Below are positions 34,683 through 39,466 of a stretch of DNA of 64,000 bases, in pieces. This DNA is from an uncultured Pseudomonadota bacterium (GTDB taxonomy: Bacteria > Pseudomonadota > Gammaproteobacteria > DASZBR01), in NCBI GenBank assembly GCA_963712965.1, contig CAVQJZ010000007.1:134015-198014 (forward strand). The letters are read 5' to 3'. A program made the translations under genes and the position numbers. Each line of letters opens with the position of its first letter. Positions within the stretch are counted from its first letter, which is position 1. The notes under the pieces are model-generated. The model searched no databases. It had not been told where the DNA came from and was given only the letters and a program-made list of their open reading frames with translations.

Positions 34683-35414
34683 CTACTCCGGATTCATCCC
34701 CGTTTGCATAGTTGCTACGCGATCGTTTCTCGGATGCCCTGTATTGTTTTGTGTAATTTGTTTATTACGGCGTTGTAAATACGCATCGCGCACAAATACA
34801 TAAGGATCAAATGCTTGTTTTAATACTGAATCGTAAGGCAACAAATTCGAACGACGATTCACCACATCGGTTGCATACAGCGCAAAACCCGTATTAGTTT
34901 CAATATAAGGATAAATACTGATCACATAATTCACCGGCAATCCTAATGTATCACGCACCGTCGATGGGCCTAAAAATGGCAAGACTAAATAATTGGAATT
35001 GGTGTAACCCCATTTCGCTAACGTCAAACCAAAGTCTTCATTATTTTTTTGCAAGCTCATGTGTGACGCCACATCAAACAAACCACCAATACCTAAAGTG
35101 CTGTTCACTGCTAAACGCCACGTATCTGAAGTCGCTTGATAGAAATTACCTTGCAGCAAATCGTTAAAAATCGTGGGAATTTCATTTATGTTATTAAAGA
35201 AATTGGTGACGCCATCTTTCGCAGGCCACGGCATAATTTTGCTATAAACATTGGCGACAGGTTCTAACACATAATTGTCGATATGTTCGTTAAAAGCGTA
35301 CGACGCACGATTAAAATTTTGATACGGATCGGCAGGATCATACGGACGATTCGTGGTGGCACAACCGCTCAACAAAAGACTCACCACTGCTAGAGACAAT
35401 ACCTTTTTCATCAC
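34683..35414 (-). CDS. mlaA: Outer-membrane lipid-asymmetry lipoprotein MlaA (VacJ)
   Basis: 243 aa. Lipobox LLLSGC. DPYQNFNR..Y.FN...D.....P.A..Y and GLFDVA motifs. Confidence 0.88.
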   Translation of the reverse strand: MMKKVLSLAVVSLLLSGCATTNRPYDPADPYQNFNRASYAFNEHIDNYVLEPVANVYSKIMPWPAKDGVTNFFNNINEIPTIFNDLLQGNFYQATSDTWRLAVNSTLGIGGLFDVASHMSLQKNNEDFGLTLAKWGYTNSNYLVLPFLGPSTVRDTLGLPVNYVISIYPYIETNTGFALYATDVVNRRSNLLPYDSVLKQAFDPYVFVRDAYLQRRNKQITQNNTGHPRNDRVATMQTGMNPE

Positions 35415-35415
35415 A

Positions 35416-36957
35416 TTACCACGCCTGGCTTTGTTTAAATTGAGTAACGGCTTCCTTTAATTGTCCAACAATCTGATCATTGTATTCACACGTTTTATTA
35501 ATTGTCTCCATTAATATCGCATAGTTAGTATGCATATAACGATGTAACTCGCGTTCGAACATAGTAATTTTGCTTAATTCCAAATCATCCAAAAATCCTT
35601 GATCCGCAATAAATAAACTCACTGCCATATCGGCAATGCTCATCGGACTATATTGTTTTTGCTTCATAATTTCAGTGAAACGCTGACCACGACTTAATTG
35701 TTTGCGCGTAACCTCATCAAGATCTGATGCAAATTGCGCAAACGCGGCTAGTTCACGATATTGTGCTAACGATAAGCGCACACCACCACCCAATTTTTTC
35801 ATAATTTTTGTTTGTGCTGCACCACCGACACGTGACACCGATAAACCTGTATTAATTGCTGGGCGAATACCCGCATTAAACAAATCTGTTTCTAAAAATA
35901 TTTGCCCGTCAGTAATCGAAATAACATTGGTTGGAATAAAGGCAGAAACGTCACCTGCTTGTGTTTCAATAATAGGTAATGCTGTTAATGAACCTGTTTT
36001 GCCTTTCACAGCACCTTTAGTCATTTTTTCAACAAATTCTGCATTTACACGCGCCGCACGTTCTAACAAACGTGAATGCAAATAAAAAATATCGCCCGGA
36101 TACGCTTCACGACCTGGCGGACGACGCAATAACAATGAAATTTGACGATACGCCCACGCTTGTTTGGTTAAATCATCATAAATAATTAATGCATCTTCAC
36201 CTTTGTCACGAAAATATTCACCCATCGCACAACCGGCATACGGCGCAATAAATTGTAACGACGCACTATCGGCAGCACTCGCTGCAACAATAATGGTGTG
36301 TTTCAACGCATCGTGCTCTTCTAGTTTTCTCACTACCGCTGCAATAGAAGACGCTTTTTGACCAATAGCCACATAAATACAAATCACGCCGGTATTGCGT
36401 TGATTAATAATGGCATCAACCGCCACGGCGGTTTTTCCTGTTTGACGATCACCGATAATTAATTCTCGTTGGCCACGACCAACCGGCACCATGGTATCAA
36501 TTGATTTAATACCAGTTTGCAAAGGTTGCGTGACAGATTGGCGATGAATAACACCAGGTGCAACTTTTTCAATCGGCGATGTTTGCGTAGCATTGATTTG
36601 CCCACGGCCATCAATCGGCTTGCCTAACGCATCAACAACGCGACCCAACAATCCTTCACCGACAGGCACTTCTAAAATACGTCCGGTGCAACGCACCGTT
36701 TGCCCTTCAGCCACATCTTGCGAATCGCCTAAAATAACGGCACCGACAGAATCTCTTTCTAAGTTTAATGCCACACCAAAAATATTATTAGGAAACGCGA
36801 TCATTTCACCCAGCATCACTTGCGTTAAACCATGAATACGCACGATACCATCGCGCAAGGCAACAACCGTTCCTTCATTATGTGCTTCGGGTGTAATGTG
36901 AAAACGCTGAATGCGTTCTTTGATTAATTCGCTAATTTCAGTGGCGTTAATTGACAT
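35416..36957 (-). CDS. atpA: F1Fo ATP synthase subunit alpha
   Basis: 513 aa. Walker A GDRQTGKT. Full-length C-terminus ...FKQSQAW. Confidence 0.97.
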
Positions 36958-36967
36958 GAACTTTTCC

Positions 36968-37513
36968 TCAATCTAATAAAGCTTGGCGCATTTGATTTAA
37001 CTTATCGCGTACCGATCCATCCATCACGACTGAATCACCTACACGAATCACCGCACCACCAATTAATGTTTCATCTTGTGAAAACTGCATTTGCGCCTGA
37101 CATTGCAAATGCTCGCTTAACACACGCGTTAATTCGCTCATCATTTTTTCTGTTAACGGACGAGCAGTTGTTACTTCCACACGTGCAGTTTTTTCTAATG
37201 CCGCGCGATACTGACGAAATACTTGCGCTATTTCAGGCAATAAATTTAAGCGTTTATTCAACGCGAGCAATTGCAAAAAATGACGCGCATCATCCGCCAC
37301 ATTTTTTATTTCTTTTTCTGTCAACTCAATAAATAATTGTGCTAACTGTTGATGGCTCCAATGAGGATCACTATAAAGCGCCACCAATTGTGTATTCACT
37401 GCTAACGCCGCCCACAATGAAAAAAGCTCGCTCCAACTATCCAGCGCTTTTTTTTCTACGGCTATTTCAAAAATAGCTTTTGCATAAGGCCTAGCCGCCG
37501 TTAATTTATTCAT
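36968..37513 (-). CDS. atpH: ATP synthase subunit delta
   Basis: 181 aa. [12 protein letters not shown] start. Position between atpF and atpA. Confidence 0.9.
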
Positions 37514-37998
37514 TAATTCATCTCAGCATTCATTTCACTAACAAAATGTTTTAGCAAATGCTCATCTAGTTGATGATCAATTTTTTGTTGTAGAATTTTT
37601 TCCGCGCCATCAATCGCTAATAATGCCACTTGTTTTTGCAAGGCTTGGCGTGCGGTGAATAACTCTTGTTCAATTTCTGCTTTCGCGACTTTAATTAAAC
37701 GATCACCTTCTTCTCGCGCACGATCTTTAGATTCATCGATGATGCGCGCAGCGCGTTTGTTGGCTTGATCCAAAATATCCGCAGCTTGAATTTTGGCATC
37801 GCGCAACAACTCTAATACTTTGTGATGCGCTAACTCTAATTCGTGCACACCACGCTCAGCCGCCGCTAACCCTTCGGTAATTTTTTGTTGACGTTCGCGC
37901 AACGCTTTTAAAATGGGTGGCCAAATAAAACGCATCGTAATCGCAATGAATACGATGAAAGTGATCATTTGCCCCAAAAGGGTAGCGTTTAAATCCAT
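37513..37998 (-). CDS. atpF: ATP synthase subunit b
   Basis: 161 aa. A single N-terminal TM followed by a long charged helix. Confidence 0.9.
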   Translation of the reverse strand: MDLNATLLGQMITFIVFIAITMRFIWPPILKALRERQQKITEGLAAAERGVHELELAHHKVLELLRDAKIQAADILDQANKRAARIIDESKDRAREEGDRLIKVAKAEIEQELFTARQALQKQVALLAIDGAEKILQQKIDHQLDEHLLKHFVSEMNAEMN

Positions 37999-38001
37999 AA
38001 C

Positions 38002-38304
38002 TTAGTGCCCTGCAGTAACAGCCGCTGCTTTCATCACAGCGCTTAAAAATGGATTTTGTGCAAACATCAAATATAAACCCATACCTAATGACACTGCCGC
38101 GAACGCATCGACAAAACCCACGATCCACAACATACGAGTAAATAACATGTTGGCCAATTCAGGTTGACGTGCGGCACCTTCTAAAAATTTACCGCCCAAC
38201 ATACCGAAACCGATCGCGGTTCCCAAACCAGCTAAACCAATTAACAAAGCAGCCGCAATGGCTGTTGATCCTTGTACGCTTGCAATTAATTGTGCAACAC
38301 CCAT
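38002..38304 (-). CDS. atpE: ATP synthase subunit c
   Basis: [14 protein letters not shown] loop and the carboxylate in GFVDAFA. At 100 aa it has a ~17-aa C-terminal tail beyond TM2. Confidence 0.92.
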
Positions 38305-38322
38305 TGAACTTACTCCTCTTAA

Positions 38323-39120
38323 TTAATGTGACTCGTGCGCCATGCTTAAATAAATAATCGTTAACATCATAAAAATAAATGCCTGGATCAAAATAACCAA
38401 CACGTGGAAAATCGCCCACACATCCCCTGGCAACCATTGCGCCCACCATGGCAATAACGCAATTAAAATAAAGACCACTTCGCCGGCAAACATGTTACCA
38501 AACAATCGCAACGATAATGATAAAGGTTTTACCAGTTCTTCAAGCAAACGAAAAGGGACATTGAGAATAAAGGCTTTTGCGCCAAAGGGCTTGGTGAATA
38601 TTTCCTTCAGAAAACCGATCGGCCCTTTGATTTTGATATTGTAATAAAGGATCAACGCAAATACCGAGAGCGACATGGCAAACGTAGCCATCGGGTCTGT
38701 CGTTGGAACAAACTTAAAGTGATCGACACCAAAAAGATGGAATATGGTTGGAAATAAATCGACGGGGAATAAATCCATGGTGTTCATCAACACCACCCAC
38801 ACGAAAATCGTCAACGCTAGTGGTGCAATAAGCGGGCTTTCGCCATGAAACGTCTCTTTAACCAGGCCGTCGACAAACTCCACGACAATTTCCACAAAAT
38901 TTTGAATACGCCCTGGCACACCAGTAGACACCGTGCGCGCTACCCAACCAAACATGCCAAGAAAAATAATTCCAAGAAAAATAGAAACGCTTAGCGTATC
39001 GACATTGAGTGTCCAGAAACCACCCGCATTAGATATACCAAACGTCATAGTGTGCAAATTGAGCGTTAAATGCTCAAGATGATGTTGCACATATTGGTCA
39101 GTGGTGAGTTCTGCGGTCAT
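38323..39120 (-). CDS. atpB: ATP synthase subunit a
   Basis: [15 protein letters not shown] motif carrying the essential Arg. Start is 39120 or 39129. Confidence 0.93.
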
Positions 39121-39466
39121 TAAACACATGGCCTCTTAAAAAAATGCTTAGTTGCGCTAACAAAAAACCGGTCAATACCGATAATGCCTGCGCGCTTAAC
39201 AGTTTAAACAATAGTACCAAAAGTACCACCATCAAACCGTATTTAATTATTTCTACTTGGTAAAATGCGCCCAAAAGCGCTTGCCCGGACGATGGTTTGT
39301 TCGCTTTCTTAAACAGCATTATCACAACGAAAAGATGCGGCAAAATGTTTGCCAGTCCACCTAAGAGTAAAGCCAATGCTTGAATTTTTGTGCTAACCAA
39401 AAAGGCGATGATTCCAGCGAGAAAAACGATGCCACACTGCCATACTATTCCACGATGTGCCATCAA
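39098..39466 (-). CDS. atpI: ATP synthase protein I
   Basis: 122 aa, four hydrophobic segments, immediately upstream of and overlapping atpB. Confidence 0.7.

Follow-up and report, generated by a model that had tools for sequence, protein, structure and literature searches.

How does an ATP synthase operon come to end after its alpha-subunit gene, with an unrelated lipoprotein gene fastened to the break, and what follows for the genes on either side? The question is raised by a 64-kb stretch of DNA (the window, C7:134015-198014; positions below are those of the window unless a contig is named) from a 1.08-Mb assembly in 7 contigs, in which the genes atpI, B, E, F, H and A are followed, within a few nucleotides (nt) of the atpA stop codon, by mlaA/vacJ. 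We consider it likely that this is a lineage-specific rearrangement in which mlaA was joined to a cut atp operon, a tolerated and near-neutral result of genome shuffling in an uncultured, Legionellales-like gammaproteobacterium that has a repeat-rich genome and is probably host-associated.

Genes were called from a list of open reading frames (ORFs) together with NCBIfam and Pfam profile scans of the window proteins. The six atp genes occupy the minus strand from 39466 to 35416, are all intact and form a compact array, adjacent genes being separated by -32 to +18 nt, just as the initial annotation had described for an operon ending after atpA. They comprise atpI (39466-39098; 122 amino acids (aa) from a TTG start or 121 aa from ATG), atpB for Fo subunit a (39129-38323; NF004477, 363 bits, cut-off 280), atpE for Fo subunit c (38304-38002; 100 aa, including a C-terminal NPFLSAV tail; NF005363, 90.5 bits, cut-off 71), atpF for Fo subunit b (37998-37513; NF004411, 197.8 bits, cut-off 131), atpH for F1 delta (37513-36968; NF004402, 169.5 bits, cut-off 115) and atpA for F1 alpha (36957-35416; 513 aa, full length; TIGR00962, 820 bits, cut-off 484, model positions 2-502 of 503). 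The curated equivalog cut-offs are passed by atpA, B, E, F and H, and by the atpG gene described below; atpI alone falls under its own (NF004763, 40 bits, cut-off 126), and its orthologue in a sister lineage has a precomputed PF03899 match. The AtpA C-terminus, which ends in QFKQSQAW, is collinear with those of relatives and is followed by its native TAA stop codon. Of the nine genes that lie contiguously on one strand in the canonical gammaproteobacterial operon, atpIBEFHAGDC, the contiguous part here is thus atpIBEFHA, and the window contains no atpG, atpD or atpC.

At the junction (35411-35418, minus strand) the sequence reads TGG TAA T GTG ATG AAA AAG, that is, the atpA stop (35418-35416), a single T and two possible mlaA starts, a GTG after 1 nt, as first noted from the letters alone, or an ATG after 4 nt; mlaA thus lies at the site where atpG normally sits. 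The mlaA gene (35414 or 35411 to 34683, minus strand; 242-243 aa) is concerned with outer-membrane lipids and encodes a lipoprotein with a signal peptide, MKKVLSLAVVSLLLSGC, a lipobox, LLLSGC, and a full-length MlaA domain (PF04333, 244 bits, positions 2-194 of 195). Its score against the enteric equivalog NF011672 is 158, under the cut-off of 375, and in an exact-protein look-up the ATG-start form was matched and the GTG-start form was without a match. No repeat or mobile element was found at the breakpoint, the junction sequence being unique in the genome; RNA folding at the junction is unremarkable (z = 0.47), and no Rfam element was found in the window from 28 to 42 kb.

Because the source is a metagenome-assembled genome (MAG), and because a join that is exact to the nucleotide looks odd, the first matter to be settled is whether the arrangement is an assembly or binning chimera, and we therefore compared the junction with independent assemblies. 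A Logan contig of run ERR12037365 (L106) is 100% identical over window positions 29670-35971, 6.3 kb that include the junction. A contig of the ENA assembly ERZ27257534 (L107) has the same junction and is 98.96% identical over 34672-35729, and because of its 11 mismatches we take it to come from a different strain. More distant is a 15.8-kb Logan contig of the unrelated run SRR27730982 (L108), which has ∼87% nucleotide identity (85% for the MlaA protein), represents a sister lineage, and carries the full order atpI-B-E-F-H-A-mlaA, beyond which lies a large ORF in convergent orientation; its junction, TGGTAATGTGATGAA, is identical. A chimera at ∼35415, which the initial annotation had named as the outcome that would undo its claim, is thus not borne out, the junction being present in three other assemblies; with no repeat at the join and both ORFs complete, we regard such an artefact as scarcely conceivable. 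By these comparisons the atpA-mlaA arrangement is real and older than the divergence of the two lineages.

Where, then, is the remainder of the cluster? The atpG gene is found at C7:265609-266475, ∼96 kb from atpA and on the same strand, full length at 288 aa and scoring 349 bits against a cut-off of 194. It has a divergent tRNA-Arg(CCT) gene upstream and a convergent rnr gene downstream, with a short REP-like (repetitive extragenic palindromic) element between the two stops, a context that is reproduced by a Logan contig. Both atpA and atpG are internal to C7, a contig of 377 kb, non-adjacent and away from its ends, and the split of the ATP synthase operon that had been proposed from the window is in this way confirmed. 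The glmU-glmS pair, which normally follows atpC, lies at the start of contig C2, where it is preceded by genes for an FMN-reductase, a pirin and TspO, not by atpC. Neither atpD nor atpC was found in the 1.08-Mb assembly by hidden Markov model searches or by tblastn with the proteins of relatives, an absence that shows nothing because the assembly is rated as only ∼57% complete, its 21 tRNA genes covering 13 amino acids and leaving 7 without a tRNA. Homologues of an AtpD from the family form more than 120 clusters of 84-100% identity from many gammaproteobacteria, among which the AtpD of this organism is not distinguishable. Both atpD and atpC probably reside in the portion of the genome that is missing from the assembly. 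The proposal that mlaA stands in place of atpGDC therefore needs to be amended: mlaA does occupy the usual site of atpG, but there has been no replacement of a block, since atpG stands alone 96 kb away and the cluster is in at least three pieces. Of the three genes that were to be sought in the full assembly, atpG is accounted for in this manner, and atpD and atpC are not in its ∼57%.

That the arrangement is derived follows from the relatives. With AtpA as the query, 84 loci were collected from Gammaproteobacteria, including four genomes of the same family; atpG comes directly after atpA in ∼80, the rest being explained by a contig edge or an insert. The four same-family genomes have the canonical atpIBEFHAGDC-glmU order, and in each of them mlaA lies in the context groEL<groES<>mlaA><rpoH, with groES divergent and rpoH convergent. 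In the present genome mlaA is still convergent with rpoH, a 1496-aa ORF having been inserted between the two, groESL is now 45 kb away, and the spacer that precedes mlaA in relatives (∼70-110 nt in the three closest) is wholly lost. No other atpA-mlaA adjacency is found among the 84 loci, and at the locus of the next-closest MlaA (P0003, 59% identity) the upstream gene is another one and atp genes are lacking. Because the four same-family genomes keep the canonical orders, we take the arrangement to be derived and genus-specific. It had been allowed at the outset that relatives might reveal the split to be ancestral and widespread; it is seen only in this genus.

Two apparent departures from the canonical order were rejected, a seeming atp split in one family genome (G001) that is a pair of contig ends, and an 835-aa open frame around atpG in another genome (G077) that suggested an alpha-gamma fusion and is a high-G+C artefact. 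Separately, in contigs from Ca. Thiosymbion oneisti (L071) and a Thiomargarita sp. (L100), and in a third contig (L023), atpG is 4.8 kb off, missing within 1 kb, or partly matched, and these are further candidates for interrupted atpA-atpG junctions.

The comparison with relatives shows what took place. An ancestral atpIBEFHAGDC-glmUS cluster came apart into three or more fragments, namely atpIBEFHA, a solitary atpG and glmUS, with atpD and atpC residing in the unassembled part. One breakpoint lies at most 4 nt past the atpA stop codon, because the atpA C-terminus and its own stop are retained. This break joined the operon to mlaA, which in the process lost its own upstream region, the divergent groES-mlaA spacer of relatives.

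Has the enzyme survived the damage? With atpD and atpC absent from the assembled 1.08 Mb, the operon shattered, and a second ATPase cluster of the V/A type on contig C1, it could be argued that the organism is losing its F-type ATP synthase, such that atpD and atpC are truly gone and the other genes are relics or repurposed. Ratios of nonsynonymous to synonymous substitution rates (dN/dS) were calculated between this genome and the sister contig, with dS of 0.17-1.16, giving 0.009 for atpE, 0.017 for atpF, 0.028 for atpA, 0.039 for atpB, 0.081 for mlaA, 0.17 for atpI and 0.18 for atpH. Because both lineages carry the split, this selection acted after the split arose, and the values point to strong purifying selection on atpIBEFHA and mlaA ever since and to an enzyme that is still in use. 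All of the atp genes are intact, atpG included, the incompleteness of the assembly deprives the missing genes of weight, and in the V-type cluster the B subunit is itself broken up among three reading frames, so that loss of the F-type enzyme strikes us as highly improbable. The V/A-type cluster (C1:1552-5985) has a Chlamydia-like layout of an E-like gene, DUF2764, A and B; the A subunit is an intact ORF of 599 aa, and B is spread over 5063-5380, 5325-5816 and 5698-5985, apparently either as a pseudogene or as the result of two frameshift errors.

We turn now to how the genes on the two sides of the break may be expressed. Upstream of atpI is a leader (39467-39517, minus strand) with a -10-like TATACT (39509-39504), a G+C-rich hairpin and a GAGG Shine-Dalgarno sequence. 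These ∼50 nt are 100% identical to the sister contig, as compared with ∼87% for the coding regions, and the leader is likely to be a promoter and 5' untranslated region for an atpIBEFHA-mlaA unit. The mlaA gene would then be the last cistron of a transcript that starts at this conserved element, because the gap of 1-4 nt leaves no room for a terminator. Ribosomes would enter mlaA by termination-reinitiation at TAA-T-GTG-ATG, or translation would begin at a weak internal start signal; there is a weak Shine-Dalgarno-like AGG 5' of the mlaA start, and because this is not kept in the sister, reinitiation is favoured over independent initiation. For atpG, expression would be from a promoter of its own in the 96 nt before the divergent tRNA-Arg gene. 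As a separate observation, atpI has a dS of 0.17, as against 0.5-0.8 in the rest of the operon, and with the identity of the leader this silent-site conservation (39098-39517) hints at a constraint at the level of RNA or of an internal promoter.

An opposing possibility is that mlaA is independent of the operon, with a promoter in the 3' end of atpA and an adjacency that has no effect on expression. A sigma-70-like site, GAGACA-18-TACAAT (35508-35479), does lie ∼65 nt 5' of the mlaA start, and it is kept in the sister, where it is nearer to consensus (TATAAT). However, the scan returned fewer promoter-like sites than shuffled sequence (9 vs 16.9), the TAxAAT coincides with Tyr-Asn codons whose conservation extends to relatives having the canonical operon, and third-position (synonymous) conservation is not raised across the stretch. 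Moreover, the gap is too short for a terminator, and in the absence of one, read-through from atpA would be unavoidable. We consider full independence somewhat unlikely; the site may nevertheless add some independent transcription of mlaA to that arriving from atpI.

At the other extreme, mlaA might have become an obligate final cistron of the Fo/alpha transcript, translated by re-initiation, with the dosage of MlaA set by ATP synthase expression and with F1 alpha, gamma and beta/epsilon balanced from at least three promoters. We find this quite unlikely; if true, it would mean that an intracellular bacterium has evolved a coupling of energy metabolism to the maintenance of its envelope lipids. 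Closely related is the suggestion that the linkage is adaptive, co-expression of MlaA with ATP synthase being under selection such that envelope lipid homeostasis is tied to energy state. Conservation of the exact junction across two lineages separated by a dS of ∼0.7-1.2 speaks in its favor. The arrangement is seen, however, in one genus only, without a second atpA-mlaA adjacency either in the 84 loci or at the locus of the next-closest MlaA, the sister has not kept the Shine-Dalgarno-like AGG, and with mlaA's own promoter lost the junction would simply be hard to undo. An adaptive linkage is, in our estimation, very unlikely, and the arrangement does not look like a designed connection between lipid asymmetry and ATP synthesis.

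The preferred reading, a near-neutral rearrangement, must itself be set against several considerations that weigh against it. Co-transcription and translational coupling of mlaA with atpA are read from the spacing of the genes only, and the promoter-like site in the atpA 3' end could give mlaA a degree of independence. The breakpoint between atpA and mlaA carries neither a repeat nor a mobile element that would account for the rearrangement. That the arrangement persists in two lineages is, taken alone, compatible both with neutrality and with a benefit under selection. Finally, continued function of the enzyme is argued from dN/dS and from intact atpA and atpG genes, with atpD and atpC not located.

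The 1496-aa ORF (30187-34677, plus strand), which relative to family synteny lies between rpoH and mlaA, is a repeat-rich orphan with no family match and internal repeats that are ∼65-85% identical. Its convergence on mlaA had been pointed out before and holds, with 5 nt between the stop codons. The counterpart in the sister (L108 10731-12152) is ∼1.5 kb shorter at the 3' end, a difference that looks like variation in repeat number. On the far side of it is rpoH (29272-30111, plus strand; Pfam sigma-70 r2/r4 and synteny), encoding sigma-32, the ancestral convergent neighbor of mlaA. A perfect controlling inverted repeat of chaperone expression (CIRCE), TTAGCACTC-N9-GAGTGCTAA, is located just upstream of rpoH (29219-29245) and again upstream of groES (C7:215200-215226), and the rpoH copy is present in two relatives as well (L105 8373-8399; L109 9678-9704). 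The pattern suggests that in this clade the sigma-32 gene is under the control of HrcA, and a search of the ∼57% complete assembly gave no hrcA. Directly upstream of rpoH (28438-29125) a PIN-domain toxin-like ORF of 137 aa overlaps a Phd/YefM-like antitoxin ORF of 96 aa, both named from their translations.

On the other flank, a 622-aa gene of the RNI-type leucine-rich repeat (LRR)/ankyrin-like kind (39639-41507) is situated between atpI and a 1205-aa ORF. It is absent from the sister contig, where a 1237-aa ORF abuts the atpI leader, and it is thus a recent gain or loss. Elsewhere in the window, just downstream of parB, there is a ∼77-nt repeat (∼9988-10065) resembling a miniature inverted-repeat transposable element (MITE), with 35 other full or partial copies on 6 of the 7 contigs. 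This load fits a rearrangement-prone genome; no copy of the repeat is found at the atpA/mlaA junction.

One further feature of the operon had been singled out as unusual, a tail of ∼17 aa at the C-terminus of subunit c. The tail is real (∼16 aa) but it is not unusual, since relatives with c subunits of 90-104 aa have it in common. The protein is 97-104 aa in length in family relatives, 100 aa in Coxiellaceae-labelled MAGs, 94-95 aa in Methylococcales-labelled MAGs and 90-91 aa in Legionella, and the extension, FANPF(L/V)..AV, is present in all four groups.

How does the locus compare with split atp clusters that are already known? Koumandou & Kossida (2014) describe the gammaproteobacterial locus as generally unsplit, report splits at alpha/gamma, gamma/beta and beta/epsilon in Aquificae and Beggiatoa, and conclude that the enzyme tolerates a split between any of its subunits (PMC4154653). 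Separate atp transcription units are known in Rhodospirillum, Synechococcus, Rickettsia, Helicobacter and Campylobacter (PMC7717971, PMC5709465). With Beggiatoa, itself one of the Gammaproteobacteria, and the Aquificae our locus shares the alpha/gamma break and a stand-alone atpG (PMC4154653); unlike them it belongs to a Legionellales-like lineage, and the break is joined at 1-4 nt to an unrelated mlaA without its own upstream region. The two-operon layouts, such as the cyanobacterial and chloroplast atp1 and atp2, the alphaproteobacterial F1 and Fo operons, and the dispersed atpB and atpE of Campylobacter and Helicobacter, likewise involve separate transcription units (PMC4154653, PMC5709465, PMC7717971). 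These, however, are ancient and phylum- or class-wide, whereas the present case is recent and limited to one genus in an otherwise canonical family. As compared with the E. coli-type atpIBEFHAGDC-glmUS cluster, gene order, tight spacing and orthology are preserved from atpI through atpA, but the cluster is truncated at that point, with atpG, atpDC and glmUS dispersed and mlaA appended.

A closer parallel was encountered among 30 relatives, in a 4.7-Mb gammaproteobacterial genome of another family (G026) that has an independent atpBEFHA / atpGDC split, the pieces lying inside different long contigs, C170 7363-11702 (L115) and C289 9007-11951 (L114). There atpA is followed after ∼390 nt by a convergent gene for a 794-aa LRR-GTPase (ROCO-like), and rpoH is 3.5 kb upstream of atpG. 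The exact atpA/atpG break is the same as ours; the difference is that atpGDC stay together and that no gene has been captured into the operon. Thus a Legionellales-like lineage and this second genome are added to the short list of atpA/atpG splits. No new mechanism or machine is indicated; rather, the locus provides a clean, dated case of an essential, stoichiometry-sensitive operon that was cut at a gene boundary and survives under purifying selection, dated in the sense that relatives retain the ancestral state and a sister lineage has the derived state in common, and a naturally occurring system in which to ask how the ratios of the F1 subunits are maintained in the absence of co-transcription. 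As a kind, the atpA/atpG split is already known from Beggiatoa, the Aquificae and the relative just described; what is particular here is its recent, genus-level origin and the nucleotide-exact capture into the operon of an unrelated gene, mlaA, whose own promoter had been lost.

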